DNA of 51,630 nucleotides from positions 1-51,630 of IMG/VR virus record IMGVR_UViG_3300033153_003505; one strand, 5' to 3'. Of the stretch, positions 15,301 through 43,526 are shown one piece after another. Under the pieces are notes generated by a model. That model ran no database searches. It was not told where the DNA came from and worked only from the letters and a program-made list of their open reading frames with translations. The DNA is from a virus (lineage: Duplodnaviria > Caudoviricetes). The position numbers and the translations under genes were made by a program. How positions within the stretch are numbered: position 1 is the stretch's first letter; each line of letters starts with the position of its first letter.

Positions 15301-18300
15301 TACTAGCTTGTTTCGCATCGCCAATATTATAATCTAAGAAACGAACAGTTGAAACGTCCCACCAAATCTTACCAACCTGCTCCTTGCCCCAAAGCAACCC
15401 TATATTTGTGTCGCCGTAAACAGTTGGATCGTACACTGTTATAAAATCTAAGTTCTGACTTGCTGCGCCAAGTACCTTTCCATTTAATGGATCGATATAG
15501 TCTAAGTAACGCGACACATTCATTGTATTACTATTATAAATGTATGTTGAGTTGATTAGATCAACATCAACTATCCCGTTCCGTATATTCGTTGCATTCC
15601 AGCTACGTGAATTAGTTGTATTTCTAAATACAACAATTCGACCAATGTCTGAATCATAACCTACTGACCCAACAACTAATATACCATCAACTAAACTAAC
15701 AGCACTACCAAAGTCATCACCTGGTGCGATGCTAGTAACAATTACCTGTTGACCGAATACTAATTTACCGCCAGTAAATACATCTCCATCATTCAATAAG
15801 TCGTATGTATAAACTACACCGCTTCCGAGAACCGTTGATGCATTGTCCATAGTCACCGCAGTAGAATCAAACGATGTCTCTTGGTCAACTACTGCTAGTA
15901 TATCTGTAGCATTGCCATCCACTGCGCCTACAACTAATTGATTTAAGTCTAAATCAATATGTAATGAGTTTCCAAAGTGTTGATCTTGTGTAGCGTCAAC
16001 TGGGCTTGTAATAGTCTGATCAACGTAGTATGGGGTTAACCCTAAATCTGCAAGCGTAACAGTTTCACCCGGTAATACATCTAACTTGTTAGCAATTGAT
16101 TGTACTTCTTTATTAATCAACTCAATAGTTAAATACCCGTCTTGAAATGATGCTCTAACATTTGGAATAGTTATTAAGTTAATCGCATCTGCTACATCTT
16201 CTGATGAGCCGCCAGCTGGAAGAGCTACTTCTACGTTGTCTATTCTAATAGAACTACTAGCCGGTATTGTTGGATTTTGTATTGTGCTTGTAATGTATCC
16301 AAACATTCTTGGCTGGTTAATGTAACGTGTAACGCTACCCTTGCCATCTAAGTCATTCTCGGCTCCGAAGTAAACTGAACATTTTGCCTTGCAAATAGTT
16401 ACAGCATTACCAAATGTAGCACCGACTGTTGGGGTTTCTGCTGCGACTAATTGTATTAATTTAAATTCAGTTGTATCAATTTCTAAGAAGTCGCCAACTT
16501 TAACAGCACCAGGTTCAAGTGTTACAACGTTGCCTGTAATGCTATATTCATAATTTAAATTTGCGCCTTCTTTAATTAGTTGCTTGCCATTGTTAAACAC
16601 CGAACCAAGTGCGGTTCTAGTTGATGAATATGTTAAATCATTTGCATCGCTTATTACAAAACGTTCAACTACTCTATCAATAATGTATGCGTTACCTGTG
16701 TCTGTGCCTGTGCCCGGTGCTGTAATAACAATGTGACTACTGTTTTCAGTTACATCAATTTCTGCACCAAAGCGATCGCTTGATCCAAGTGTACCAACAA
16801 TAGAGCTAATGAATCTAAATGTTGTGCCTAGTGAAATGCTAATGTTTGCTGTGCCACTAGCTGGTGCCGTTGCAAACACCACGGCAGTTCCTACTAACGT
16901 ATAATCAATTATTGGACGTTGTATTATTGCATCAACTTTAACAATAATAGAATATAATCCATCAAGCGCAAATAAATCTACTACTGCAAAGGTATCTTCT
17001 ATCGTGTCGCCACCATATACTACAGTGTCTTTTCGCGAAATAACAACCGTGTCACCTGCGTCTGGTAACGTTGTTAATATGATATTTGGTGCTACGTAAT
17101 CATAGTCAGAAGCATAATCTAATAGTACACCGTTAACGGTTACATTAATTTCATTCTCTGCACTAATAACGATATCGCTTGTAATATCATATTGCAGTGT
17201 TGCTCCGTCGGCTATAAACGAGACCTGTTGTGTTTCGTAATCTATTTTCTGATATGAATGAACCTTGTTATTATCTGGCTCACCAACAAATACCCAGTTT
17301 TCATCTTTGCTCATTGCAATACTTAAACCAAAGCCATCACCAAGTGTAGATCCCAACGTTTGATCTGGACTAACAAGCAATTGGGTTTCGATAACATTAT
17401 CTAATGTTCTATTACGATTTGCAATTGCTACAATGCCCGGAGTACTTACATCGCCTGGCGCTGTAATAGCACCCCATGCTTCTATTAATACCACATCGTT
17501 ACCGTAGCGTGAAATATTTGAATTACTGTTTAACGATAATGGTAGCTTCCATGTGTAATTTCCAACACCATCTTTATTATAAAAGTGTGCTTCGCCTGTA
17601 GCTGGATCTCCTACTAGTAACCCGGAATTTGCGTATCCTTGTGATACGCTCTGACCAAATTCAGCTGTTACTCCATTAGGATTAATTTCTTCATCGCTGT
17701 ATATAAACGGGCGTGTTTTCTTATATGTTGCTGGCTGCCCGCCATCGTTTGCAACCCAGACAGTTTCGGGTGTATGAATGTTATTATCAAACACAGAGCC
17801 TGCAATAGAACTTGGTACATCTACACGTGCCGATCCAAATTGTAATATAATTCCCGTGCCGTCCAGAATACAAGTTTGATTCTTAGCCAGGGCGCCGGCT
17901 ATTACAATGTTAATTGAATCAAACACTCGTAATACCTTATGGGTGCCATCAACTAATTCATCAAAGTCGAGAACAACGATTGTGTCGTTAGCTGCGAAGT
18001 TATGTGCGATGTTAGTAACTAATGTTAAGGTGTCGTCTAAATTATCAGTCACACTAATAACAATAGGATCTTGTTTAATTGCACGATATACATTCCAATC
18101 AGTCTCTGTATCCCTTGCAACCCATATTAAAGTACCTTCACTCACATCACTAGTTACATCTATTTCACTAATATCAAAAACAGCGATGTCTACATCATCA
18201 ACATCCACAAAGCCTGCCGTTGGCAAAGCTGTGTCTAAGTTCTGCTCGCTGCATGTAGGGAAAATATTTTTATTTGTGTTCTTCTCGCTCTGCTTATAAA

Positions 18301-21300
18301 TGTTAGCTACAGGAATTAGCAAGTCGCTAACTGATGCGTCGGCTACCGAGTCAACAATTTCTACTAGGCTCGGATTTGTTGTAAGACTGTCTTCGTCAAG
18401 CTTCAATTCAATATATGAACGGTTGCTAGTAGCACCATAACTAGCGCGTTTAATCGCCCAGTTCTCAAAAATAGTATAATCAACTGTTTCTTTGTTTAAC
18501 TCTGCATCTACAAATAAGTTGAGACTATCAACTGTGCCTTTATTCTCTATCATATCACTGTAAATGTTTATCTGACTAATGTCATCTAAGTCCAATGAAC
18601 GCAAGTAATCTCGTGAACGGAAACCTGTTAACCCAAATGCCATTAAATCAACATCGCTTTCTAAGTTTGCAGTTTTATTATTGTAGTACTGAAGCATTTG
18701 GTCTGACTTAGTCGCCAAGTTAGGCAATAGGCCCTTGTTAATGCTATTGTAATCTGTTTTTACCCATTGGCCGTAATCAAATGTTTCGGATGGTTGAACT
18801 TTTTCAGACGCGCTCCAGTACGAATTCTTAAACTTAACAATGTCGCCCTTGTTATACGTGCTTACTTGTGTCCAAGTTTTAACATTATCTTCGTTATATA
18901 AGAAGCCTTGTGCATCTAGCTGACCGTTCCAGTCGTACGTAGTAAATCCAGATAGTTTAACACGATGTTGTCTTACGCCAGTGACTGGATCATAAATTAA
19001 GTCATTGAATATACTAACATTATCTAAAATTAGCAAATGCTCAAAACTAGTTAGGTTGAATTTTAAGTAACTAATAATGTTACCGTCGATCATTTGTAAC
19101 TTAAAGTTATTATCGATACGATCAACTACGTAGTCGCTAATATCTAGCGGTTCTCTATTTTGATTTAATGGCTGTTCTGTTAATTCTAAATTAGTTAAAT
19201 CATCAACAATGTGTAACTCTCGTTCAAACTCTAATGCCGTTGCCGCTGGGTTTAAGTTAATAATGCTGTTAACCGCCCAGCCTTGGTCTGCCCAGTACAA
19301 AAATTCCTGGACCATTTGCACCCAGTTAACTGCCTGTGTGTTTTCACGTTCTTCAAATTTCAATCCCGAGCGTATTAAATATTCGTTGTAGCTTACAATA
19401 AATTCACCAATAGCCTGCTTACTAGTAAACACATGGCCATATGGAATATATTCTATAGAGTCAGCAAAATCTAATGGAACTCTAATAGACGAAGTTGCTG
19501 CATTGGTTCTACCAACAGCGATAGTATCAAAGCGTCCTGTATTTACAGAGGATTGTATTTTAAAATATGGGTCTGTAAAACTGTTGCCAATAACTGCATA
19601 ACCATCAGCAACCTTTTGTACTACAATTGATGAATATATAATTTCATCTAGTGGTTGATTCTTATACATTAATAATTTGTAACTTTCGTCGGGCAATAAT
19701 AAGCTATTATTTGTGCTGTCCGGGCTACTCTTGTCTGTAAAGATTTTTAAGTTATTCTTATCTGTAAACGATGCCATATGGTGACATAGGTTCACATTAA
19801 GATTTGATAAGTCCGTTTTAAGTTTTGCAAGACTTTCGTAACCAAAGTGTTTGTTGTAATCAATAACCCAGTTTATGTAACTATGCTTAACTGTATTTTC
19901 ATCAAGTAACTCAATGTCACGTACATCAATTCTTAGACGACTATCATACAAGTACTGTTCTGAAACTGCATCATAAACATAACGATCTCTGTCAGACATT
20001 AACGCAAAGTACTGAGCTGGCCTAGTTAATGCATACAGTGTTTGCATTGCAAATGGCCATGCACTTGATTTTCTCCAAGCCGATTCAGCCGGGGCTACAT
20101 CGCTAACCTTCCATGACTTCTTAAAGTCGTACGCCGAATAGCCTGCTATTAGAGACTCTAACGGCATCAATAAGTGACCTTCGCCATCAACCGGTAGTAT
20201 TTGAGTCAGTCCAGGACGCACGTATCTTTCATCTACGTGTTCATTGGCTGGATCTTTAATTAACCCGGCTTCCATGTCGTCCCATAATACTAAGTTACCA
20301 CTAGTGTACGGTGCTGGACCGTAACGTAGTGTCCACCAGTCTGGGCGTTCTGCTAATCCAACCATTTCCCACGGACGCTCATGTGGTGCATCTGTATCGT
20401 AGTAGTCTATATAGATGCCACGCCAGTGTCCTTGTTCAATTGACGCATTAGTTAATTTGTCAGTTGAGGCACTGTAGTTCCATGTTTTGTCTTCTGCTTG
20501 ATTGTAATCTTGTTTTTTGTAATCAATTCTGTTCCAACCTAACCACGACAGTAAGATAGGTGACAGTACTTCAAGAATTTCTTGATCTGCGTAATCTGTT
20601 ACACGAAATGCACCCGGCATAATATCAGCTGGTTCAATCGGAATAACGTCGTTTACTTTAATATTGTTATAGATACGTTTTTCAAATTCTAATAATACTA
20701 AATCACGTATATCGTTATTGCCATCGTTGTCTTTTCCAAAGGAAGTAGTAATGCTGCCATCGTGTCCTCGTACGACGTCGACTGGATTCGTATAAGTGTC
20801 ATCTGTAAATATCAACGGTTTGTATTTTGGAAACAAACCTAATTTAGTAGGTGTGCTTGGCACTATTGCGCCGAGCGTCGTGTTGTATTCGTTAATTCTT
20901 ATAACATCATCCGGTAATATTTCAACCGATACATTAATACGTGGGCCGTCTGTTGCTACACTGTAGTCAGTATCTTTTGTTAGCAGTATACCATTATGAT
21001 ATACTAGTATCGCTTGGGTGTTAGCAGTTAAGAAGTCATATGTGTTAAGCGTAGTAAACGTTCCTGTACTAATCGCTGTTACTAAGTACTCGGTAGTTTC
21101 GTAATCCGAGCCAGATGGTAACATATCGCTCCAGTAGTACGAACTATCAACTGTTTTACCTGTGTTAATATCCTTAATTGCATTGTCTAGAATATCGCCT
21201 GGCGTCATTCCAAATATATCGTGCTTCTCAACCCAATCAGTTAACTGATTCTTAAACTTTTCGTACTGGCGTGACGCAAAGTCTACTGAACTAAAGAAAT

Positions 21301-24136
21301 TATATTCTTTAAAGCGCATAAACATAGCGGCAAGTGCAATTGGGGATGATTGTTGTACAATAAAGTTACCGTATTTGCTTATGTCACCTAGGTCACGTAG
21401 ATTATTAGCACCATTAATATCACCCTGCACCGTTAATATGTTTTGTGCTAGGTTGTTATAGTGATTACGAATCGTGCCAAGTGTTAATAACGTTGTGTTC
21501 TCATTGAACATGTTACTTGATAAGTTAGTTGGAATTTCGTAGTACCCATCTTTACTAATGTCGTTGCTAATTACTTTTAGTTGCAATTCAGCATCTTCCG
21601 GAATGGTATTTAAAAATGTAATAACATTCGCAGTTACTTCGTACTCGTCCGGAGTAATAAATGCACCATTAGCAGTGATTCTAACGGCAGGGATTAATAA
21701 ACCATCTTCCGGTGTAATATCTAATATTACAGGTTCGCCTGTATATACCAAATCAATAACTTGTGCCTGGCGTGACTGTTCAATTGATTTAACCCAACCA
21801 ATTGCATTTGTATGTTCAATCCGGGTGTTGTATTTTCTAGCAAAGCCATTACTAATTGGTGTGTCGGCAAGTGACACACTATCTTCTACATACAAGAACG
21901 TGTCGTTGTACATATTATTTTCAAAAACAATATCGCCTAGGTTATCAATGTTTAAATATCTTAACGGGAAGCCAAGCACTGTATCATTTGCACCAGTGCC
22001 TTCGGCATAGCTGAATAACTTACTGCCAGTGAACGTAGTGCTTGAGTATGCGTTAATATCACCAAGCGAATTACCGTTAGTATCGAATATATCAAACAAC
22101 GGTGCCTGGTTAACAGACGTTTTAGCTTGTGACTCTACCCAAGCAGTACCATCAAATGTGTACGTTGTACCTTGTTGAGTAAATCCTTTTGCAACTACAA
22201 CAATATCATTTTCTTCACTATCACTATCATCTGCCAGGACTAAGTTTAAAGTTTCGTTACCGTCATTGTTAACATCAATAAACTCAACTAAGAAAATCTT
22301 GTCTCTAACAGTTGGGTCGGCGTCGTTAGAAAAGATAATACGACTACCGTCTATTAATTTATATCCATCAACTGTGTAACCCAGCGATCCATTAATGTTT
22401 GACATTGCGTCGAGCTCGGCAAAGTCAATAATATCAACAAGTTGCTTACCGTACGTTCCGTAATTAAATAAACGCAAATCTGCATCGAACTCAATGATTG
22501 GGCGAGATGCTCTATTGTTATTATCGATATCTACTACAGTGTTGTTATATTCTGCGGTTGCTGTGATAACATCTAAGTGGAACCATCTGTTGCTGCGAGA
22601 CCATGCATTTTTATCTAGGCTAGATCTATTAATAGTAATATAATCTAACTCAGTTGGTGCATTTAATGTTCCATCCATCGCCGTTGTATCCCAAGCCGAG
22701 ATGTCCCACGGGACAGTAAAACTTGTGGCATACGTCTCTGGCACTTGTAAATCGTTAACTAGCACCAAGCGTATTGATGTACCAACCCCTTCTACAATAT
22801 AATCACTTCTATCGTATTCTTCTGGAGATACTACACCACGAAATCGTACTTTAAGTCCGTTTGTAAATACTACCCCATTTGGACTTGTATAAGTTGGTCT
22901 GCCAAGTATATCGTCTATATCTAAAATTGCGGATGACTCATTATCAACTACACTAATAACACCAAAACGATTTGGGTTAGTTGCATCTTGATAATATAAA
23001 GTATCTAGCGATGCTGTTTCAAGCGGTACTTGTTCAAAGTATCCGTCGGAGTCTTTAAAGAAACCTACGTTACTGTATAGCGCACCATATAGTATTGTGA
23101 ACTTTTCAAAAATCGTAATTTGTTGCAGTGGAATTAATCTAACATATATGTCGCCTAGTACGTCTTCAAGATAAATTCTAAAAATTTGGTATCTGTCTTC
23201 TTGGTTAGTTAACGGTAACCCGTCGTTAACCCAACCCAAGTCAACTGCATCGCCTGGCGTGTCGTCTAAGAAGATAACAGTCTTGTTATCAATGTTTTGT
23301 ATGCCGGCTATCTCGCTAACATCATCAAGCAACTGATCAGCTATTGTATCCATACGCCTATCAGTCGCTATATCAACGTTGCCTATGCTTGTTAAGTTAT
23401 GATAGAAACTTTGTGCATCACTAGCCGGAACATTGAATTGAATTGTGCCGTTGTCTTCGCCGTTGTTTGTAACTCCAACAATGTCTCTACTGCTGATATT
23501 ATCTGCCCACGGTACTGTACCGTCTAGCCCTGGATGTGTTTGAATATAAAAAGGACTGCCAGTCTGATCTAGATTGAAGTTATACGAACCTCCGCGTAAC
23601 ACTGTAATAACAGGGTTTGCAACGTTAAATCCTTCAATTGAAAACGAATTTGCATTTGCAGTAATTTCAAAATCGTTTGTTAGCAACACACTTGATGCTG
23701 CTACATCAACACTGTCAGGACCATTCGGTAACCAAAAGTATTGAGAGTAGTTTACAAACTTGTCAAAATCAATAAGCGGTGACCAGCTATACATGTCAGA
23801 TTTAAATAAGCGATCGTGATTATCAACATTGGCGCCAGTAGTTGCTAGGCCATCTAATAGACCCAGGTACGTTAACGCGTCAACAGTGTCACCGTTCTCG
23901 TCTTTAAATATAACTCCTGGCTCAAGTTGATAGTTAGTTCTTCTTTCTGTCAACTCATCAATATATCCATCAGTTGATGACTTACCCGGAGCATTTATAC
24001 GACCAATGTAACCTTGAGTTTGTTTTAACTTTGGTTCTTGAATCAATTGATCAAGAGTTGAGTTTAAAAACTTTCTGTTAGTTGGTGTTTGAAAGATCTC
24101 TGGTAGAAAATCTACACTGCGAATTCTATCTGCCAT
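12347..24136 (-). CDS. Giant multidomain baseplate/tail structural protein (3929 aa)
   Basis: Single uninterrupted acidic ORF directly after the gp6-like gene. It has FG-GAP-like repeats (FGxSV...LVVG), PGTGYTxAPTI repeats and FD/WD-rich segments. Confidence 0.8.
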   Translation of the reverse strand: MADRIRSVDFLPEIFQTPTNRKFLNSTLDQLIQEPKLKQTQGYIGRINAPGKSSTDGYIDELTERRTNYQLEPGVIFKDENGDTVDALTYLGLLDGLATTGANVDNHDRLFKSDMYSWSPLIDFDKFVNYSQYFWLPNGPDSVDVAASSVLLTNDFEITANANSFSIEGFNVANPVITVLRGGSYNFNLDQTGSPFYIQTHPGLDGTVPWADNISSRDIVGVTNNGEDNGTIQFNVPASDAQSFYHNLTSIGNVDIATDRRMDTIADQLLDDVSEIAGIQNIDNKTVIFLDDTPGDAVDLGWVNDGLPLTNQEDRYQIFRIYLEDVLGDIYVRLIPLQQITIFEKFTILYGALYSNVGFFKDSDGYFEQVPLETASLDTLYYQDATNPNRFGVISVVDNESSAILDIDDILGRPTYTSPNGVVFTNGLKVRFRGVVSPEEYDRSDYIVEGVGTSIRLVLVNDLQVPETYATSFTVPWDISAWDTTAMDGTLNAPTELDYITINRSSLDKNAWSRSNRWFHLDVITATAEYNNTVVDIDNNNRASRPIIEFDADLRLFNYGTYGKQLVDIIDFAELDAMSNINGSLGYTVDGYKLIDGSRIIFSNDADPTVRDKIFLVEFIDVNNDGNETLNLVLADDSDSEENDIVVVAKGFTQQGTTYTFDGTAWVESQAKTSVNQAPLFDIFDTNGNSLGDINAYSSTTFTGSKLFSYAEGTGANDTVLGFPLRYLNIDNLGDIVFENNMYNDTFLYVEDSVSLADTPISNGFARKYNTRIEHTNAIGWVKSIEQSRQAQVIDLVYTGEPVILDITPEDGLLIPAVRITANGAFITPDEYEVTANVITFLNTIPEDAELQLKVISNDISKDGYYEIPTNLSSNMFNENTTLLTLGTIRNHYNNLAQNILTVQGDINGANNLRDLGDISKYGNFIVQQSSPIALAAMFMRFKEYNFFSSVDFASRQYEKFKNQLTDWVEKHDIFGMTPGDILDNAIKDINTGKTVDSSYYWSDMLPSGSDYETTEYLVTAISTGTFTTLNTYDFLTANTQAILVYHNGILLTKDTDYSVATDGPRINVSVEILPDDVIRINEYNTTLGAIVPSTPTKLGLFPKYKPLIFTDDTYTNPVDVVRGHDGSITTSFGKDNDGNNDIRDLVLLEFEKRIYNNIKVNDVIPIEPADIMPGAFRVTDYADQEILEVLSPILLSWLGWNRIDYKKQDYNQAEDKTWNYSASTDKLTNASIEQGHWRGIYIDYYDTDAPHERPWEMVGLAERPDWWTLRYGPAPYTSGNLVLWDDMEAGLIKDPANEHVDERYVRPGLTQILPVDGEGHLLMPLESLIAGYSAYDFKKSWKVSDVAPAESAWRKSSAWPFAMQTLYALTRPAQYFALMSDRDRYVYDAVSEQYLYDSRLRIDVRDIELLDENTVKHSYINWVIDYNKHFGYESLAKLKTDLSNLNVNLCHHMASFTDKNNLKIFTDKSSPDSTNNSLLLPDESYKLLMYKNQPLDEIIYSSIVVQKVADGYAVIGNSFTDPYFKIQSSVNTGRFDTIAVGRTNAATSSIRVPLDFADSIEYIPYGHVFTSKQAIGEFIVSYNEYLIRSGLKFEERENTQAVNWVQMVQEFLYWADQGWAVNSIINLNPAATALEFERELHIVDDLTNLELTEQPLNQNREPLDISDYVVDRIDNNFKLQMIDGNIISYLKFNLTSFEHLLILDNVSIFNDLIYDPVTGVRQHRVKLSGFTTYDWNGQLDAQGFLYNEDNVKTWTQVSTYNKGDIVKFKNSYWSASEKVQPSETFDYGQWVKTDYNSINKGLLPNLATKSDQMLQYYNNKTANLESDVDLMAFGLTGFRSRDYLRSLDLDDISQINIYSDMIENKGTVDSLNLFVDAELNKETVDYTIFENWAIKRASYGATSNRSYIELKLDEDSLTTNPSLVEIVDSVADASVSDLLIPVANIYKQSEKNTNKNIFPTCSEQNLDTALPTAGFVDVDDVDIAVFDISEIDVTSDVSEGTLIWVARDTETDWNVYRAIKQDPIVISVTDNLDDTLTLVTNIAHNFAANDTIVVLDFDELVDGTHKVLRVFDSINIVIAGALAKNQTCILDGTGIILQFGSARVDVPSSIAGSVFDNNIHTPETVWVANDGGQPATYKKTRPFIYSDEEINPNGVTAEFGQSVSQGYANSGLLVGDPATGEAHFYNKDGVGNYTWKLPLSLNSNSNISRYGNDVVLIEAWGAITAPGDVSTPGIVAIANRNRTLDNVIETQLLVSPDQTLGSTLGDGFGLSIAMSKDENWVFVGEPDNNKVHSYQKIDYETQQVSFIADGATLQYDITSDIVISAENEINVTVNGVLLDYASDYDYVAPNIILTTLPDAGDTVVISRKDTVVYGGDTIEDTFAVVDLFALDGLYSIIVKVDAIIQRPIIDYTLVGTAVVFATAPASGTANISISLGTTFRFISSIVGTLGSSDRFGAEIDVTENSSHIVITAPGTGTDTGNAYIIDRVVERFVISDANDLTYSSTRTALGSVFNNGKQLIKEGANLNYEYSITGNVVTLEPGAVKVGDFLEIDTTEFKLIQLVAAETPTVGATFGNAVTICKAKCSVYFGAENDLDGKGSVTRYINQPRMFGYITSTIQNPTIPASSSIRIDNVEVALPAGGSSEDVADAINLITIPNVRASFQDGYLTIELINKEVQSIANKLDVLPGETVTLADLGLTPYYVDQTITSPVDATQDQHFGNSLHIDLDLNQLVVGAVDGNATDILAVVDQETSFDSTAVTMDNASTVLGSGVVYTYDLLNDGDVFTGGKLVFGQQVIVTSIAPGDDFGSAVSLVDGILVVGSVGYDSDIGRIVVFRNTTNSRSWNATNIRNGIVDVDLINSTYIYNSNTMNVSRYLDYIDPLNGKVLGAASQNLDFITVYDPTVYGDTNIGLLWGKEQVGKIWWDVSTVRFLDYNIGDAKQASKLWGKVFNGSTIDVYQWVESNVPPSEYTGTGTVLDENKFITIANVKKSGIVNNSYYYWVNGVETISVNSEKTLSASAIASYIESPSSSGVSYAAFIAPNTIGLYNCNDIIQNTDSVIYVEYDRTKNDSNVFVEYDLFRENHPIDFLSDGLFKKLQDSFAGVDSLGNLVPDVGLSPADRFGIDFRPRKSMFVDRYAALSSYMKKVNGILIKYTVAESQPYTLLNSEEAMPSDTSGEWDEQIFNNEELSFQDLATVPAGYSYLLETDENSGGLWAIYEVTPAKTLQLKRVQSYDTKRFWDLVNWNAEDFNPLTSVDYVVNEFTELSTLNGIENNAIAKVVHNSIGSWEIYRLVDGVWDRVALENGTIQFNEVLWNYELGRYGWDIEVFGAQNFDEEPVIELRQIIRSINEEILIDDLAIERSRAILSVFNYILAEQPHVDWLYKTSLIDVTQKVRSLSQYDVYQKDNQDYLIDYIKETKPYHTKVKDFLLSYDGIDYVNGTVTDFDCPSTYDAEFDQYISPILDDGATLVTDPSNKLATDEVWQTAPWKEWFANYQLTIEDVIITNPGTGYTVAPTIEVTGESLTPATMTARVDVSGLVVEINIVDPGSGYSETPTITFVGGNGADAKALAVMNNELVRTFNTSVKYDRYEYETNIVAWEADTAYDVDQLVKVDNDVYRIIDTAPATTFNPDLHELVNIESLSGIDRTTGFYVSDVNSPGLDLSLLINGIAYPGVEVDGVGFDQNTGFDLSTFDTVPFDNFDIGPEGFPTYSDDLIDAIYESQFLDTFLGTSPTDINVDGGEFIDTYHSHAPEELVPGAIFDTLDIKVFDTFTGTSFRLFKDMRDSVAMYKMSDTFLTQDLSDTDDIIYVDDASVLGTPDLAMAKFGILIINGERITYRERDLLNNTVSGLRRGTAGTGIPSLHTTNDVVYDVSAQGLVPGTARIISNDTTEAADSIWYAPGTNSDDGFEVKLENQTTLQAVFIKS

Positions 24137-36421: not shown

Positions 36422-38352
36422 TAAAAATAAAAAATCTAACAGTAAAAAACTTTATGTCAATTGGCAATGCCACACAAGCTGTGGACTTCGATCGCGATGA
36501 CTTAACATTAGTACTCGGAGAGAATCTCGACCTCGGTAGCAATGGCTCCAGGAACGGCACGGGTAAAACTACACTCATAAACGCACTTAGTTATGGCTTG
36601 TATGGCAGCGCCTTATCTGACATTAAAGTAAACAATCTTATTAATAAAACAAACGGAAAGAACATGTTAGTTAGTGTTGAGTTTGATATTGATGCTGTTG
36701 AATATAGAATTGAGCGCGGACGCAAACCGAACTTGTTAAAGTTCTTTAAGAATAACCAAGAACTTGTAGACGAAAACGAAGCGCAGGGTGAACAGAGGGA
36801 AACGCAAAAAGATATTGCTGGCCTATTAGGTATTAGTCATGACATGTTCAAACATTCAATTGCGTTAAACACATACACAACGCCATTCTTATCCATGCGG
36901 GCTGTGGATCAAAAGAATATTATTGAAGAGTTGCTCGGCATTACAGTATTATCTGAAAAGGCTGAAGCACTTAAAATAACTAACAAAATAGTAAAGGATA
37001 ATATCAAAGAAGAAAACTTCCGCCTGGAAGCGGTTATTAAAGCTAACGAACACATAGAAGAACAAATTGCAGGGCTTGAACGTAGGCAGCGTATGTGGAA
37101 GTTAAAGAAAGATGAGACTGTTGGTGATTATACTTCCGACATTGAAAAACTCATGGAAATTGATATTAACAACGAACTGCAAAAACATAAAGACAATGCA
37201 GATGCTAGAGAAACTGCAAAGAGTACATGGTATCAGTTAACCAGCGACAAACAAGAAGAACATGATGTTACTATGAATGAGTTCATTAATGAGAAAGCCG
37301 TTGTTACCGAACACAATGCAAGCATTAGCAAACACAATGCTGAAATTTTAGATTGCAACAGATGGATTCAATCCATTGAGTCTGACCGAGTAATTAACGA
37401 AAAACGGTTACAAGGGTTAGCAAAAGATATAGAATTAATTAACGAACACAAGTGTCATGCATGTGGACAAGAACTGCATGACGAAAAACATGAAGAAATT
37501 AAAGCACAAAAAGAACAACTAGTACAAACTATTGCAGCTGAAATACTTGCAGGCGAAACACAAGAAATGGAACACAAGCAAACATTAGCAGAGCTCGGTT
37601 CGCCACTCGAAACAAAGGTAGTTCCTGAGAAACCTGTACTAGTTCCAATTGAACGAATTGAACCTCTTGTTCTAGAAACATTCTATAGTACAATTGACGA
37701 AGCGCACGGACATAAGAGCTCATTCGAAACATTAACATCACAATTAGAAACAGCACTAGCAGACGAAGATCCGTACAGCGAACAGATACACGACATGAAC
37801 GATAAAGGCTTGCAGGAAATTTCGTACGATGAAATGAATAGACTTGACGAGTTACAAGAGCACCAAGCATTTTTGTTAAAACTGTTAACAAGCAAAGACA
37901 GCTTCATACGTAAAAAGATTATTGAACAGAACTTAGCTTACTTAAACAATAGGCTTACACACTACCTAACAGAGATTGGCTTACCACACCGTGTACGCTT
38001 TATGTCTGACCTATCTGTTGAAATTACAGACATGGGACGAGACTTAGACTTTGACAACTTGTCACGCGGTGAACGTAACAGACTTATACTATCGTTAAGC
38101 TGGGCATTCCGCGACGTGTGGGAAAGTTTGTACAATCACATTAACTTATTGTTTGTAGATGAACTTGTTGACAACGGCTTAGACACTAACGGTGTTGAAG
38201 CTGCAATTAAAATTATGAAGGGCATGGCACGAGAGCGCGGTAAGAGCGTGTGGCTAGTGTCACACAGAGACGAATTAATTAATCGTGTAAACAATACCAT
38301 GATGGTTATTAAAGAAGGTGGCTTTACTAGTTACGAGAGCGCCGCTGCATGA
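36418..38352 (+). CDS. gp46: Recombination ATPase subunit, gp46 (Rad50/SbcC-like)
   Basis: Walker A NGTGKTT, coiled coil with a CHAC zinc hook, signature LSRGE, Walker B LFVDE and the VSH loop. Confidence 0.93.
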   Translation: MIKIKNLTVKNFMSIGNATQAVDFDRDDLTLVLGENLDLGSNGSRNGTGKTTLINALSYGLYGSALSDIKVNNLINKTNGKNMLVSVEFDIDAVEYRIERGRKPNLLKFFKNNQELVDENEAQGEQRETQKDIAGLLGISHDMFKHSIALNTYTTPFLSMRAVDQKNIIEELLGITVLSEKAEALKITNKIVKDNIKEENFRLEAVIKANEHIEEQIAGLERRQRMWKLKKDETVGDYTSDIEKLMEIDINNELQKHKDNADARETAKSTWYQLTSDKQEEHDVTMNEFINEKAVVTEHNASISKHNAEILDCNRWIQSIESDRVINEKRLQGLAKDIELINEHKCHACGQELHDEKHEEIKAQKEQLVQTIAAEILAGETQEMEHKQTLAELGSPLETKVVPEKPVLVPIERIEPLVLETFYSTIDEAHGHKSSFETLTSQLETALADEDPYSEQIHDMNDKGLQEISYDEMNRLDELQEHQAFLLKLLTSKDSFIRKKIIEQNLAYLNNRLTHYLTEIGLPHRVRFMSDLSVEITDMGRDLDFDNLSRGERNRLILSLSWAFRDVWESLYNHINLLFVDELVDNGLDTNGVEAAIKIMKGMARERGKSVWLVSHRDELINRVNNTMMVIKEGGFTSYESAAA

Positions 38353-40118
38353 AATTCGAATTAAAAAATGTAGATGAATTCCAAATTGAAGTTACGGGAT
38401 ATTGTAACGCGGCCTGTCCTCAGTGTCCGCGTAATCTCAATGGTGATCAAGAGAATCCACATCTACAAAAAGAACATCTGTCACGCGATATAATTGACAG
38501 AGCGTTTACGCCCGAGGTATGCCAGCACTTACGACAAATATTCTTTTGTGGTAACTACGGCGATCCAATCATGCATCCAAAGCTATTAGATATAATGGGT
38601 GACTTCATGAAAAAGAATGCAGACATTAATATTTACATGCACACAAACGGTGGAGCACGTACTCCTAAGTGGTGGGCTAAACTTGCAAAAGTAATTGGAC
38701 CTAACGGGCGCGTCGGATTTAACATAGACGGTCTTAAAGATACAAATCACATATACCGCTGCAATACGGACTTTAAAAAGATTATGGCTAACGTCAGAGC
38801 ATTTATCAAAGCTGGTGGTCGTGCTGAATGGAACTTTATTGTTTTTAAACATAACGAACACCAAGTACTTGAAGCTGAACAGCTTGCTAAGAAAATGAAG
38901 TTTGAAACATTTAATAAACGTGCCACTGGTCGTTTCCTAGATTACAATAACTTTATAGAACTTGACAGTTATCCAAAGCATAATAAGGATGGCGAGTTGG
39001 AATATCATATCGAGATTCCAACTGAAATTAAAAACAGAAACAGTAGCATGGTGTTCTTACCAAAGTTAAAAGAAAAACACGATCATTACTTAGGCGAATA
39101 CTTTAGCAATACAGAAATTAGCTGTGACTCATTATGTAGACACCATGGCAATGCTCACGGTAAAGTCGAAAAGAGCAAACTGTTAATTACATCAAACGGT
39201 CTTGTACTCCCTTGCAACTTCTTTAATCACAACTTAGTCGATGCACGTTTTCATAATAGAGATATTGTGCCGGGCGCAAACGATATGAGCTTTTTACCCA
39301 ATGGTAAAAATCAAGTCCGGGATTTTCTAGACCAGCATAACGCAACTACAGAGATGAATATAAATTATACATCGCTTAAAGACGTTATGCATAATGCGTT
39401 TTGGGATGAGCTTGTAGAGAGTTTTGATAAGACACTAGACACAGGTCGTATATTTGAATGTGCATTAACATGTGGCAAAGACTTTTATAAAGTATGGGAT
39501 CAAGTACACTTCCAACAAAAATCATACTTAGTTACAGGTGGTGGGAGCGGGTTAGGTTTAGAATTAGTACATCACTTTAAAGGTGTTAACATCTCTCGCT
39601 CTAATGCAGATATAGAAGGTGACATTACTAACCGCGAAGACATAGAACGTATTGCAGAGGAGTCACTTAACTACGATGTGTTTGTTAACAATGCATTTGA
39701 TGGTCCGGCTGGTGAACCACATGTAAACTTCGGGCAGGTTAACTTGCTAACAGCAGTATTTGATAAATGGAAAGCGGCGGGCAAGGAAGGACACATTATT
39801 AATATTGGCAGCACAAGCGCCACCGAAATTGTTGCACCTGACCCAACGTTCGAACGCTATAGAGTTACAAAGGCAGCGTTAATACATGCAAGCAAACAAT
39901 GTACTGCGGCGTTTAAAGAAAACCAGGTACTATTCAAGACTACAGTTATTAACTTTGATAGACTTGACACTCCGCTGAGTAGGAGTCGCGATAATTGGAC
40001 TGGCAACGGTACGCCGTTAACGGATATAATTAAACAAATTGAAATGATCACAGACATGCATCCTAATACTTGCATAGAAGAACTTACAAGCTGGGTGAAT
40101 AGGGATTATTCCGAATGA
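38349..40118 (+). CDS. Radical SAM (SPASM/twitch) protein fused to a short-chain dehydrogenase/reductase
   Basis: N-terminal CNAACPQC, CGNYGDP and LPCNF...CALTC. C-terminal LVTGGGSGLG, DVFVNNA, IINIGS and YRVTK (YxxxK). Confidence 0.85.
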   Translation: MKFELKNVDEFQIEVTGYCNAACPQCPRNLNGDQENPHLQKEHLSRDIIDRAFTPEVCQHLRQIFFCGNYGDPIMHPKLLDIMGDFMKKNADINIYMHTNGGARTPKWWAKLAKVIGPNGRVGFNIDGLKDTNHIYRCNTDFKKIMANVRAFIKAGGRAEWNFIVFKHNEHQVLEAEQLAKKMKFETFNKRATGRFLDYNNFIELDSYPKHNKDGELEYHIEIPTEIKNRNSSMVFLPKLKEKHDHYLGEYFSNTEISCDSLCRHHGNAHGKVEKSKLLITSNGLVLPCNFFNHNLVDARFHNRDIVPGANDMSFLPNGKNQVRDFLDQHNATTEMNINYTSLKDVMHNAFWDELVESFDKTLDTGRIFECALTCGKDFYKVWDQVHFQQKSYLVTGGGSGLGLELVHHFKGVNISRSNADIEGDITNREDIERIAEESLNYDVFVNNAFDGPAGEPHVNFGQVNLLTAVFDKWKAAGKEGHIINIGSTSATEIVAPDPTFERYRVTKAALIHASKQCTAAFKENQVLFKTTVINFDRLDTPLSRSRDNWTGNGTPLTDIIKQIEMITDMHPNTCIEELTSWVNRDYSE

Positions 40119-41116
40119 ACATAGCAATGGACCACTGGCATATAGAATTAAGCAGTAAGTGCCCACTAAAGTGTCCGCGGTGTCCGCGACTTGAAGTAGC
40201 AGAGTCATTGTTAAACAAACAACTAACACTAGACTTCTTTAAAGAACACGTTGGTGTTGACGTTATAAAGAACATTCAGAAGATTACATTGTGTGGCAAC
40301 GACGGCGACCCTATATATTGCACAGATTTAATTAATATCATTAAGTGGTTTAAAGAATGTAATCCAGATATAATGATTGTCATTGTAACAAACGGTAGCA
40401 ATAAACCAAAGTGTTGGTGGCGCGAGCTTGCACTTACACTAGATGAACATGACGAGATTCATTGGAGCATCGATGGGTTTGACGATATGTCAAACAACTT
40501 GTATCGTGTTAACTCAAATTGGAAAACTATTATTGACGGGGCAGAGGCATTTATTGATGCTAACGATACAACATACACGGTCTGGGCTGCAATTGCATTT
40601 AGTTTTAATCAGGATCGCTTAAAACAAATGACAGAGATGGCTAACGAAATGGATTTTGATGCATTCCAACTAACCAAAAGTACAAAATTTGGCAGTATGC
40701 ACTCTAGATACCCGCGGCGTGATTTCTTAGAGCCACGTAAAGAATTTGTTTCGTCATCGGGTCGCTTTGAGCGTGACTGCATAGCGTTATCAAATAAAGA
40801 ACGCCCAGACCAAAGTATAAAAAAGACTTTTAGGATACGAAAAGACGAATTAATATTTTCTAACGACGCAGGAATATGTATGATAGGCAACAAAGGCTTA
40901 TTTTTAAATAGTCGCGGTGAGCTGTATCCGTGTTGTTGGGTTGCAAATAGATTTGAACACAACGACCCGTGGTCAAACAATGCACTTAACTTATATAACG
41001 AGCCAGTTAGTAAACTTGCAACTTGGTACGATGATTTGATTTTTACATCAGCGGAATGTGTAGCTAAATGTACAAGGGCAAAACTTGCTGATGATGATCA
41101 CACGTTAGAATGGTGA
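40115..41116 (+). CDS. Radical SAM protein with SPASM/twitch-like C-terminus
   Basis: CPLKCPRC, CGNDGDP, LYPCCW and ECVAKC. Paralog of the preceding N-terminal domain. Confidence 0.88.
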   Translation: MNIAMDHWHIELSSKCPLKCPRCPRLEVAESLLNKQLTLDFFKEHVGVDVIKNIQKITLCGNDGDPIYCTDLINIIKWFKECNPDIMIVIVTNGSNKPKCWWRELALTLDEHDEIHWSIDGFDDMSNNLYRVNSNWKTIIDGAEAFIDANDTTYTVWAAIAFSFNQDRLKQMTEMANEMDFDAFQLTKSTKFGSMHSRYPRRDFLEPRKEFVSSSGRFERDCIALSNKERPDQSIKKTFRIRKDELIFSNDAGICMIGNKGLFLNSRGELYPCCWVANRFEHNDPWSNNALNLYNEPVSKLATWYDDLIFTSAECVAKCTRAKLADDDHTLEW

Positions 41117-41647
41117 TTAACTGTAGTAAAAATCAGTTATGTTAAACTCAGTAAACAGTTTATCTATAAGTTTTGTTAGTTTTCTAGATTTTGGATAAGC
41201 AGGAACTTTCTTCTTAGGATACTTTGCTTTGAAGAGTTTAATCATTTTATTATAAGATGATTTTTTAATTTTTGGTACTTTAGGTACCTCGCTAGGATGA
41301 ATGTAATAATTATCATCCTCGCAATACGCGCCAGCTTCTAAGTAGTCAGCTAGGTTGCGTAAGAACGATGGGAGATCAGTTGGGTGCTTAGATACATCAG
41401 CACCAAAGTATCGCTTCCAGTTATTTGTTATCTTACCTTCCATTGCGTTAGCACGGAATTCGATAGCATTGCGAATAGTACCTTTATCTTCTGCATAAGG
41501 TTCAGCCTTTAGTTTATGTATATGATCTAAAGCTGTCTTATCCAAAGGCACAGGTACGCCAAGTAAAGGACAAATTTTATTATTTTGCTTGTGGAGTTTT
41601 TCTTTAAGGACCTTAATGTCCTTTGTTTTAAGCTCTATATATGGCAT
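41117..41647 (-). CDS. Endonuclease VII-like (His-Me finger) nuclease
   Basis: QNNKICPLL...ALDHIH...GTIRNAIEFRANAMEGKI matches the gp49 pattern (LDHDH...GKVRGLLC..CNAAEG). The start is set at ATG 41647, after a TATAAATA box. Confidence 0.75.
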   Translation of the reverse strand: MPYIELKTKDIKVLKEKLHKQNNKICPLLGVPVPLDKTALDHIHKLKAEPYAEDKGTIRNAIEFRANAMEGKITNNWKRYFGADVSKHPTDLPSFLRNLADYLEAGAYCEDDNYYIHPSEVPKVPKIKKSSYNKMIKLFKAKYPKKKVPAYPKSRKLTKLIDKLFTEFNITDFYYS

Positions 41648-41650
41648 ACT

Positions 41651-41686
41651 GATATTTATAGTGGTGCAACAACGACTATAAATATC
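41651..41686. promoter_or_regulatory. Divergent pair of perfect T4-type late promoters within a 12-bp inverted repeat
   Basis: GATATTTATAGT-12 nt-ACTATAAATATC. TATAAATA occurs on the minus strand at 41653-41660 and on the plus strand at 41677-41684. Confidence 0.75.
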
Positions 41687-41689
41687 GAC

Positions 41690-42270
41690 ATGTTGTACAC
41701 TCCGCGAAGGGGTATACATCTAGGACGTTACAGACACCCAGTCAAAATGCACCCAGGAGCGGTGTGGGAAAATTCAGAACCCTTTGGAAGTTTATTGATT
41801 TAGCCTAAACACTATTGAAAGCCTTGGCGCAGGCGGTTAACATGCGCTGGTAACTCCTTCCTGATGTGAGAAGGTAGCCTAAATGCTCCGGGCAATAGCG
41901 GAGTTAACAGTCACTAACCGTGCCAACGGCTGACGATGCAATATGCCTTCCATATAATGCGTTTGACTGTGAAAAGAAATCAATTATGGGAAATAGTGTT
42001 TAGGCTAAATGATGACGGCTCTGCTAGAAAAAGAATGCAACCGTCGACCCTTACTTTGCTGGTGATCACAACGAGGTGAAGTAAAGGTTCCGTTGTGAGA
42101 GTCGGACATAGGAGGTAGCGGGCGACCGCCTTCGTGTTATTAATAATAACAATTGTCTATCGTGTGGGTGTTAACAGTATATCGTTAACATTGGTGAAAA
42201 AGTTCTAGGTCAACTAGTAAATCTCCAAAACAGAAAATATTTTTTTGTTTTTTGGCCCGCCTTAGGTGGG
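41690..42270 (+). ncRNA. Candidate large structured non-coding RNA, family unknown
   Basis: No convincing ORF, a late promoter immediately upstream, nested long-range helices including a perfect 19-bp stem (41798-41816/41992-42010), and G-U pairs that work only on the plus strand. Confidence 0.6.
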
Positions 42271-42468
42271 TGGAGTATGACTCCTTGTTCAGGTCAATCA
42301 GTTCTACTAGATAAACAGTAAATTTATTCTTTCCTAACGAATTAATACTAACTTAGCGTAAGCAGATATGAGTTTGTGTAGCGATAGCGTAACAAACGAA
42401 TAGATTTGCAAAAGCAAATCTCCCACAATGAGACTACATTGTCACTGTTATGACTAAAGGATCTGGTG

Positions 42469-42699
42469 TTAAAAGAAGGGTAAACCTGATTTCTTTGTAA
42501 GTTCTAGGTTTTCTTTGGATATGTTAGCAATCATTTCACGTTCACTAAGACTCATATTAAGCACGTCATGATATTGAACACCACCACGCATTGCCCAAGA
42601 CAATTTTAACGACTCATCGCGTATAGAGGCCGCTTCTTTATCTAGTTGATCAACAAAATTGGAAATTTCTTCAGAATTCAGGATTAAGAGTCTTGCACG
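42469..42699 (-). CDS. Frameshift-accessed C-terminal extension of the gp26-like chaperone (gp51/GT-like)
   Basis: Open frame of 76 codons, RARLLILNSEEISNFVDQLDKEA...WAMRGGV...KENLELTKKSGLPFF. It has no ATG near its start and begins at a T TTT TTC slippery site. Confidence 0.65.
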   Translation of the reverse strand, partial: RARLLILNSEEISNFVDQLDKEAASIRDESLKLSWAMRGGVQYHDVLNMSLSEREMIANISKENLELTKKSGLPFF

Positions 42700-43526
42700 A
42701 AAAAAGATGTCATATCCAGTGTAAACGGTTGCTCGTATTCATGTCTGCATTCTTCTTCAAAGCATTTAATCTTAAGTGGCTTTAGAGCCTCAGATGTTTT
42801 TTGTGTAATAACTGCTTTCTTAATTTGTTTGAATATTTCGTTATTACAATTTTCTAAAAACTCTAGGATATATTTTTCGCTATCACATGTAGTGCTAGGT
42901 GTTGTAATTGACTTAATGTTTTTAGCTAGTGTTGCAATGGTGTATTTAGATACCTTTTTAAATGCGTCGGACAATAATTTAACTTGTTCATCTGCATCCA
43001 TCTCCGAGTCTGCTATAATGTTTGACATTTTTTCTTCTTCAAATTGTAATTTATTATTTTCATTCAAGTCTTTATAAACCATTGGCTTAAAGAAAATAGT
43101 TAAATCACCTAGCGTTAACGGCTTAGAATAATCAGGATATTCAACTGATTCAATTATTACTCTTAAATCTAATGAGAAACTATGTTCTTCTTTACATTTA
43201 GGGCAAGTAGTATCTATATCCATTTGATGACCGAAGCTTGCAATTCGAATTGCAGCTAGTACCGCAGTGATATCTGTAATTGGCATCTGCCACGGGTCTT
43301 TGATAGATGGAATACAACTTTTAATAACGTCAACAATAGCCGATCCGTTAAACAATGCGTCAGGCGTTTTATAAGTAATTTCGTCTAACGCTGTCATTGG
43401 GTAAACTGGCAATTCATTTGTCTCAGGCATTTCAAGTGACCCGGCAGCATAGTATTCACCTTTGCTTGGCAACTCTAAATGAATTGCTGGACGTCTAAAG
43501 TATTCTGATAAGGGATTTTCGCTCAT
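42684..43526 (-). CDS. Baseplate hub / tail assembly chaperone, T4 gp26-like
   Basis: NPLSEYFRRP..LELPSKG, VYPMTALDE, AIRIASFG, CPKC and a C-terminal C....C. The start is set at ATG 43526, with a GGAAA Shine-Dalgarno sequence and TATAAATA at 43558-43565. Confidence 0.8.
   Translation of the reverse strand: MSENPLSEYFRRPAIHLELPSKGEYYAAGSLEMPETNELPVYPMTALDEITYKTPDALFNGSAIVDVIKSCIPSIKDPWQMPITDITAVLAAIRIASFGHQMDIDTTCPKCKEEHSFSLDLRVIIESVEYPDYSKPLTLGDLTIFFKPMVYKDLNENNKLQFEEEKMSNIIADSEMDADEQVKLLSDAFKKVSKYTIATLAKNIKSITTPSTTCDSEKYILEFLENCNNEIFKQIKKAVITQKTSEALKPLKIKCFEEECRHEYEQPFTLDMTSFFVQDS

Follow-up and report, generated by a model that had tools for sequence, protein, structure and literature searches.

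Background

In the plasmid ColE1, an upstream G-run of RNA II pairs with a C-run of the template further downstream, and a primosome site lies downstream. Phage T4 has several R-loop origins per genome, including oriF/ori(uvsY) and oriG, in which a promoter (a middle promoter) is followed by an unwinding element, and we know of no need at these origins for a large folded RNA with twin repeats. The element described here lies in a 51,630-nt stretch of jumbo-phage DNA (the window) and, on the reading developed below, has the T4-like phage background, the promoter with unwinding element and the several origins in common with T4. With RNA II, as presented in the accessible part of PMC5043065, it shares a non-coding transcript of about 550–600 nt, a possible role for RNase H and a 3′ end hybridising (in our element, a would-be hybrid) to its own template. 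It differs from ColE1 in lacking any sequence or Rfam match, in belonging to a phage rather than a plasmid, and in its pseudoknot, variable twin repeats and several copies per genome in cultured phages; antisense RNA I regulates ColE1, and the window has no Rfam match for such an RNA.

Three other described RNAs bear on the comparison. ROOL and GOLLD (PMC12286853, accessible part) are similar in size class and ornate fold, but the element has no Rfam match to them, the window has no tRNA and the one expressed look-alike is rare. The Polynucleobacter-1 RNA motif (Weinberg et al. 2010, PMC2864571) has no function assigned in the accessible text of that report. ncRNA004 of phage PA5oct (Lood et al. 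2020, PMC7318152), a 619-nt plus-strand RNA annotated from RNA-seq, is listed in the accessible text of that paper with neither structure nor function. Comparative evidence indicates that the element forms a plus-strand RNA structure, pseudoknotted and conserved across a large family of jumbo phages, and we propose, with a probability of roughly 0.45, that it acts like ColE1 RNA II as the precursor of a primer at an origin of replication.

Gene neighbourhood of the element

The virus record containing the window is 15% complete by estimate, which corresponds to a genome of about 340 kb of which the window is a 51.6-kb fragment; no second copy of the element was found in this record. Gene order near the gap is T4-like: a late sigma factor, SbcD/SbcC (gp47/gp46), two radical SAM genes and an endonuclease VII gene (minus strand) precede it, and a small gp51-like ORF and gp26 (both minus strand), then portal and head protease genes, lie on its 3′ side. 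The gap had been singled out from sequence as the only long ORF-free stretch, and 41720–42683 is the sole ORF-free run of ≥380 nt in the window, counting the 44-aa gp51-like ORF inside it as below the size limit of the ORF scan. The endonuclease VII-like resolvase gene (41117–41647, minus strand; phrog_423, E = 8e-21) is divergent from the RNA, next to which it lies, and is probably no dedicated partner of it. Signatures of tRNA, tmRNA, RNase P and introns had not been recognised, in agreement with the lack of any Rfam or ARAGORN match for tRNA, tmRNA, RNase P or group I/II introns in the window. Contigs from one DNA sequencing run (share 0.06) span parts of the gap at 80–99% identity.

Several other features of the region were recorded. 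The two radical SAM genes (38349–41116) are inserted after gp46, the first being fused to a short-chain dehydrogenase domain, and their number differs among close relatives (two in the window, one in L002 and L003, none in L007). A 975-aa gp46 frame in L004 (3532–6459, minus strand) aligns as two pieces, suggesting an inserted domain, e.g. an intein. A TTTTTTC run near the end of gp26 (42699–42705, minus strand) is kept in L002, L003, L004, L007 and L298 and is accompanied by a start-poor ORF (42469–42603, minus strand). The tail region includes a 3929-aa ORF (12347–24136, minus strand).

Extent and fold of the predicted RNA

The predicted non-coding RNA is about 610 nt long (41690–42300, plus strand) and is followed by an AT-rich tract and a hairpin tail; its 5′ end is inferred from a promoter box and its 3′ end from that of PA5oct ncRNA004. 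The ~550-nt element proposed in the sequence-only reading (41690–42270) is real but was drawn too short. All six of its helices that were checked by coordinate pair fully in the window, including 41719–26/42202–09 and 41733–40/42165–72 (8/8 each), 41798–816/41992–42010 (19/19), 41907–13/41964–70 (7/7) and 42014–18/42041–45 (5/5), and the small motifs named with them are also present; a seventh, additional trial pairing gave 3/6. As conserved features, however, two of these fail: the outermost helix (41719–26/42202–09) pairs in one of five aligned homologs, the window alone, and 41733–40/42165–72 in three of five. Instead, 42160–66 pairs with the loop at 42067–74 to form a pseudoknot, with compensatory changes at 3/7 pairs. 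The GCGA loop, taken for a GNRA loop, is not conserved either, synteny-found loci reading ACGA, ACAA, AUGA, UCAA or CCAA.

From 5′ to 3′, the RNA begins with two clade-specific hairpins (within 41699–41765), at 41699–41713, seen by eye in 3/5 homologs, and at 41749–41765, with compensatory change at 3/5 pairs. A 19-bp stem (41798–42010; 5/17 stem pairs compensatory) then surrounds a Polynucleobacter-1-like domain (41822–41964), and is followed by a hairpin (42014–42045; 2/5 pairs compensatory) with a conserved A-rich loop, a motif which in about 1.65 Mb of phage DNA is present at element copies only. The pseudoknotted core (42047–42166) comprises the stem 42047–60/42075–88, with the loop 42067–74 pairing with 42160–66, and a helix (42104–08/42154–58) closing two hairpins (42111–33 and 42135–51). 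A final G/C-rich hairpin (42255–42271), with 100% of alignment cells paired, is located between two copies of a 7-nt repeat. The sequence-only reading had missed this 3′ hairpin with its twin repeats (42207–42297) and the hairpin tail (42368–42421), as well as a divergent second TATAAATA and a weak RF01718 match inside the 19-bp stem.

A search with endonuclease VII gave eight loci: L001, identical to the window over its part of the gap, L002 (79%) and L003 (in part), both alignable to the gap, L004 and L007, syntenic but diverged, and three in unrelated settings. L298 and L299 were obtained as extra close homologs from a metagenome scan. In a five-sequence alignment, 115 named pairs in 18 helices were 96.0% paired, with 37 compensatory pairs, against 88.9% and 13.1 in shuffles (0/500) and 38–44% paired with slid partners, in a comparison that favours the structure because this was derived partly with RNAalifold from the same alignment, and in which five related sequences are few; covariation in the larger family is the stronger test. 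A first clade-specific pattern matched 0 viral stretches, and in 50,697 phage records blastn found only 8 short chance matches to the gap (1 with a family member as query). In two relatives tandem repeats occur directly 5′ of the RNA: an array of a short imperfect repeat in L295 (15555–15690; about 275555–275690 of genome G008) and a shorter one at the same place in L299 (1124–1165).

Folding energy supports a structured plus strand (z = −2.84, 1/100 shuffles as good) but, as the minus strand folds at z = −3.74, does not by itself pick a strand; for the core (41795–42170) z is −3.21, with 0/100 shuffles as good. That the minus strand folds as well as the plus by energy would suit a DNA-only element or an untranscribed relic, an explanation we regard as highly improbable given that the pseudoknot covaries, that a promoter appears where read-through is lost and that ncRNA004 is transcribed. 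Base pairs in three core helices of the family also speak against it: these include 7.5–21.8% G-U vs 0.6–1.2% A-C, a bias that points to plus-strand RNA, although the columns were picked for high covariation and RF01718 columns picked likewise are 98.6% Watson-Crick, so that the contrast is only suggestive. The large multidomain plus-strand RNA first proposed thus gains backing from family covariation and from G-U far above A-C in core helices.

The Polynucleobacter-1 domain and the wider family

The RNA had been taken to be of no recognised class. This holds for the 3′ half, which has no Rfam match, but the centre is already known, being a diverged form of the catalogued orphan motif Polynucleobacter-1 (RF01718). 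Rfam gave seven weak matches in the window, none at cut-off, so no strong match appeared, but RF01718 is weakly present at 41822–41964 (17.3 bits, E = 1.9, vs a gathering cut-off of 37; 22.3 bits in L002 and 21.3 in L003). The order of helices and the conserved loop letters of the model are found there (model positions 1–141 aligned; helices 3–8 paired at 87–100%). Among 15 syntenic loci picked from 45 found with gp26, six exceed the RF01718 cut-off, at 86–108 bits, and scores of syntenic relatives reach 86–120 bits. Conserved sequence in the passing syntenic loci extends about 300 nt beyond the model. Polynucleobacter-1 is thus one domain, followed in the window by about 330 nt of conserved pseudoknotted RNA, and many family members carry another 5′ domain besides it.

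An 18-nt core pattern matched at least 120 viral stretches, with about 1500 stored stretches estimated, chance matches included. An HMM of 87 pattern-found sequences, from which the window was excluded, finds 41824–42466 at E = 6.7e-13. The family has many Watson-Crick covarying columns, and its pseudoknot averages 6.8 bp over 87 sequences, vs 5.2 when partners are swapped, 300 shuffles reaching at most 5.55. The features that define this extended Polynucleobacter-1 family (pseudoknot, core helix, twins around the last hairpin, and tail) all occur in the window.

Other RNA subtypes occupy the same slot in L013 (4811–5259), L043, L046, L049 and L015 (5990–6513, minus strand); their 5′ and core sequences differ, whereas the twin-hairpin-twin module and the tail are retained, and our core covariance model (R1) does not match them. 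A scan of species genomes gave eight loci, six of them with jumbo-phage genes on apparently mis-binned contigs; copies in host islands were not confirmed, the remaining two being a short contig with none of the tested markers and a chance match in Streptomyces. Jumbo-phage contigs of up to 183 kb (L307–L310, L303–L305), apparently mis-binned, lie within bacterial MAGs of Polynucleobacter, Haliscomenobacter and Bacteroidetes.

Twin repeats around the last hairpin

In the window the 7-nt sequence AGGTCAA is present at 42207–42213 and again at 42291–42297, in the predicted 3′ end region of the RNA, and the two copies change together in homologs. The twins are identical in 87/87 homologs with both anchors, in 11 variants, vs a mean of 15 and a maximum of 31 in shuffles. 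Anchors were chosen irrespective of 7-mer identity, and the 87 derive from the at least 120 matched loci via 103 unique loci with enough flank; of the 16 left out, seven are, by eye, apparent members with variant anchors and matched twins and nine are apparent chance matches. A separate family alignment, preselected for identical twins, was kept out of this count. Further loci from mis-binned contigs have matched twins in 3/3 cases (by eye). Within the window clade twins read AGGTCAA, AGTCAA, AGCCA, GTTCGA or GGTGAA, and those of L004 and L007 are unclear. At least 41 twin changes were counted on a tree of 86 sequences built from the upstream part.

No third site complementary to the twins was found in the RNA or at any fixed place within 1.5 kb. 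Genome G008 carries two paralogs with different twins, matched within each, which points to a requirement in cis. The simplest reading of twins that are identical yet drift is a cis partner complementary to both, for which the template DNA strand qualifies and which we infer it to be. No mismatch of the kind tolerated through G-T pairing was seen between twins, although a slipped hybrid should permit some. Pairing of twin 1 with the segment after the hairpin, as in a K-turn or C/D box, was considered and rejected, as no covariation was seen. Twins that change in step, yet have no complementary partner, amount to an unusual constraint under any mechanism.

A ribozyme or self-processing RNA could employ a single active site at two identical positions, for instance to excise or circularise the hairpin between the twins, and the pseudoknotted core and highly conserved central motif would be in keeping with catalysis. 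We consider this quite unlikely: Rfam yields neither a ribozyme nor an intron match, no internal guide that could pair with the twins was found, and no gene is interrupted by the element.

Look-alike copies in cultured phages

A gp26 search gave 96 phage records. In 121Q, BF and GAP32 the genes are ordered as in the window, around a gap of 800 nt; the slot is taken by a resolvase in Paride/PA5oct and Phosso, and in Phosso an annotated RNase HI directly follows the gap; no matching gap or element was evident beside gp26 in Atu_ph07 and XacN1. Look-alike copies, all on the same strand, are dispersed in these genomes (four in 121Q, five each in BF and GAP32, three in Paride and PA5oct), with spacings of 52–84 kb in BF. 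Under random placement, evenness of this order has P = 0.005 in BF, the same in GAP32 (not independent of BF), 0.05 in 121Q and 0.19 in PA5oct; the shared strand says little, as that strand carries about 78% of the coding. Environmental relatives have mostly one copy, including the 99%-complete genome G007, which we counted against the primer reading.

Cultured copies show a covarying pseudoknot and matched twins of their own, and in 121Q all four share one twin. Synteny and architecture are what connect them to the window, no sequence score being significant: R1, which has only 11 pairs, gave no significant match in eight cultured genomes (best E = 2.4), and HMMs of the window family and of the cultured copies do not cross-match in either direction, including in 121Q. 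By synteny the gene slot agrees, and the order of helices, pseudoknot and twins agree in 121Q, BF, GAP32 and RaK2, as judged with a tuned descriptor. This order-and-pairing descriptor, loosened after a first version missed all cultured copies, finds 4/4 copies in 121Q, the 2/2 given for BF, GAP32, RaK2, the window and four environmental copies, with one match in 4.6 Mb of shuffled sequence; it misses PA5oct, Phosso, L002, L003, L004 and the second G008 copy, and gives one unexplained match (G008, 127383).

PA5oct was linked by the A-rich loop motif and by eye. Its ncRNA004 is a paralog of the PA5oct element in the gene slot of the window; it shares the A-rich loop motif and, by eye, the pseudoknot, core helix, last hairpin, AT tract and tail, but has a sigma-70-type box upstream, vs the late box of the window, and no significant model score. 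The annotation, whose boundaries are approximate, places its 3′ end 21 nt beyond the last hairpin, short of both the AT tract and the tail. According to the accessible text of PMC7318152, ncRNA004 accounts for 0.08, 0.03 and 0.02% of phage reads at 5, 15 and 25 min, and the syntenic copy, annotated as tiny ORFs, is absent from the four ncRNAs listed there.

This scarcity weakens the ROOL/GOLLD-like scaffold suggested in the sequence-only reading. More generally, the element could be a free structural or scaffold RNA, with both twins bound by one and the same phage protein or RNA, or pairing with each other as a parallel homo-base-paired duplex. The large ornate fold and the single twin common to all four 121Q copies are compatible with a scaffold or such a duplex, and one common twin-1 context matches, letter for letter, an 11-mer which, in crystals as in solution, assembles into a homo-paired DNA duplex with parallel strands (PMC4330391, accessible part). 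We nevertheless think this unlikely, though worth keeping in view: the G008 paralogs differ in twin sequence, the twins change at a pace with which a protein partner would hardly be expected to keep up, many of them, in cultured phages as in the window clade, are C-rich and have no GA steps, and the PA5oct look-alike is rare and declines late in infection.

Promoters and the adjoining nuclease slot

The perfect plus-strand box TATAAATA reported upstream of the element was confirmed at 41677–41684, as a T4-type late promoter box and predicted RNA start signal in the window clade. A second, divergent T4-type late box (41653–41660, minus strand) serves the endonuclease VII gene. The two boxes are 16 nt apart (41653–41684), and the minus-strand box is 5 nt before the endonuclease VII start codon, a spacing which suggests a nearly leaderless late mRNA. 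ATAAATA occurs 10 times in the window vs 22 expected, mostly just before gene starts, and in this rarity and placement behaves as a real late promoter in the phage of the window. That the RNA has its own late promoter fits the window clade but does not extend to the family, where TATAAATA is there in 0/59 members.

A co-oriented GIY-YIG-like gene (phrog_447) lies upstream in 54 of 59 long-flanked family loci, a RusA-like gene in three and a gene without assignment in two. Where the upstream gene faces away, promoter-like boxes appear, of the late type in the window, L002 and L298 and of the sigma-70 type in L003, L007, L298 and cultured phages (by eye), which we read as selection for transcription of the element. 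PHROGs labels phrog_447 (e.g. L013, 5263–5694) 'NAD synthetase', yet it matches homing-endonuclease families and is found in the resolvase slot; it is probably a minimal GIY-YIG nuclease, the fold name being our assignment.

Each genome has one type of nuclease beside the element, with three families overall, and we read this as an interchangeable resolvase slot, not a guide-nuclease pair. The nuclease partner suggested from sequence loses ground accordingly, as three nuclease families share the slot and none accompanies the dispersed copies. If the RNA guided the nuclease beside it or served it as a cofactor, in the way of HEARO/omega RNA and IscB, this would explain the minimal GIY-YIG-like gene directly upstream on the same strand in 54/59 family loci, but such a role is very unlikely in view of this variation of the slot between genomes (endonuclease VII, RusA-like or GIY-YIG-like), the dispersed copies and the absence of a HEARO match or a noted variable guide segment. 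HEARO/omega RNA itself was rejected as an identification, with no Rfam match and no fixed IscB/HNH gene downstream.

A late packaging or recombination signal, in which the RNA or slipped twin-repeat DNA marks a site for the resolvase or terminase, draws on the late promoter of the window clade, the position between gp47-gp46-resolvase and gp26-portal-protease genes and the nuclease gene that adjoins in 57/59 family loci, and slipped DNA would also require identical repeats. Dispersed copies have no nuclease neighbours, however, cultured-phage copies are preceded by sigma-70-type boxes (by eye), ncRNA004 peaks early and the core helices show an RNA-type G-U bias, so that we judge such a signal to be unlikely as well, a little beyond the scaffold.

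The element as a possible RNA-primed origin

A primer precursor would make use of the DNA that follows the RNA. The AT-rich tract (42298–42367), a candidate unwinding element, has 72% AT vs 56% in the RNA and 61% in the window (family means 71% vs 55% for tract and RNA). The two-hairpin tail (42368–42421), with GA-flanked stems, is a candidate single-stranded DNA signal outside the RNA: its DNA fold has z = −5.19, the motif occurs in 54/85 family members, and the tail hairpin in the family is strand-neutral (95.9% Watson-Crick, 1.8% G-U, 0.6% A-C).

In the proposed mechanism, RNA polymerase would transcribe the element from its own promoter if the upstream gene faces away, or by read-through if it is co-oriented, and the folded RNA would leave the twin repeats unpaired. 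One RNA repeat could then re-pair in a shifted register, with the template strand of the other repeat, a slippage that would explain why the twins stay identical despite free sequence drift. The persistent RNA-DNA hybrid would keep the duplex open beside the AT-rich tract and supply a 3′ end for DNA synthesis, directly or after RNase H, while the displaced plus strand would expose the hairpin tail as a loading signal for a helicase or primosome.

The layout, the low early expression of the look-alike and the even dispersal of copies fit a ColE1-like primer RNA at an origin. GC skew follows the gene strand, with no break at the element, and an RNase HI gene was found in one of five genomes searched, although an enzyme of the host could serve. 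T4 late promoters require replication already under way, and the late-type promoter of the window counts against the primer reading; with the late box, the element of the window clade would be a late or secondary origin.

More broadly, and as a tentative proposal that we hold to be possible rather than probable, T4-like jumbo phages may have a widespread class of RNA-built origins, in which a pseudoknotted RNA re-invades its own template via self-matched, drifting repeats with no initiator protein, multiplied in some lineages to four or five origins at even spacing. Neither Rfam nor the literature searched contains the 3′ half, the twin constraint or the multi-copy arrangement, and Polynucleobacter-1 is named in a single paper of that literature. 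The literature searched (including the accessible parts of PMC13282480 and of PMC6892783 on MIJ3, and subscription journals to a small extent) has no description of the RNA or of origins in these phages.

For the start of replication in jumbo phages of the gp55 type (Rak2-like phages, PA5oct and Paride, and a very large uncultured aquatic clade), the element is a concrete candidate that is present in laboratory phages. If the proposal is true, a 350-kb phage genome would be copied from many RNA-primed starts, and an orphan RNA motif from 2010 would be given a role, revealed as one domain of a much larger RNA.
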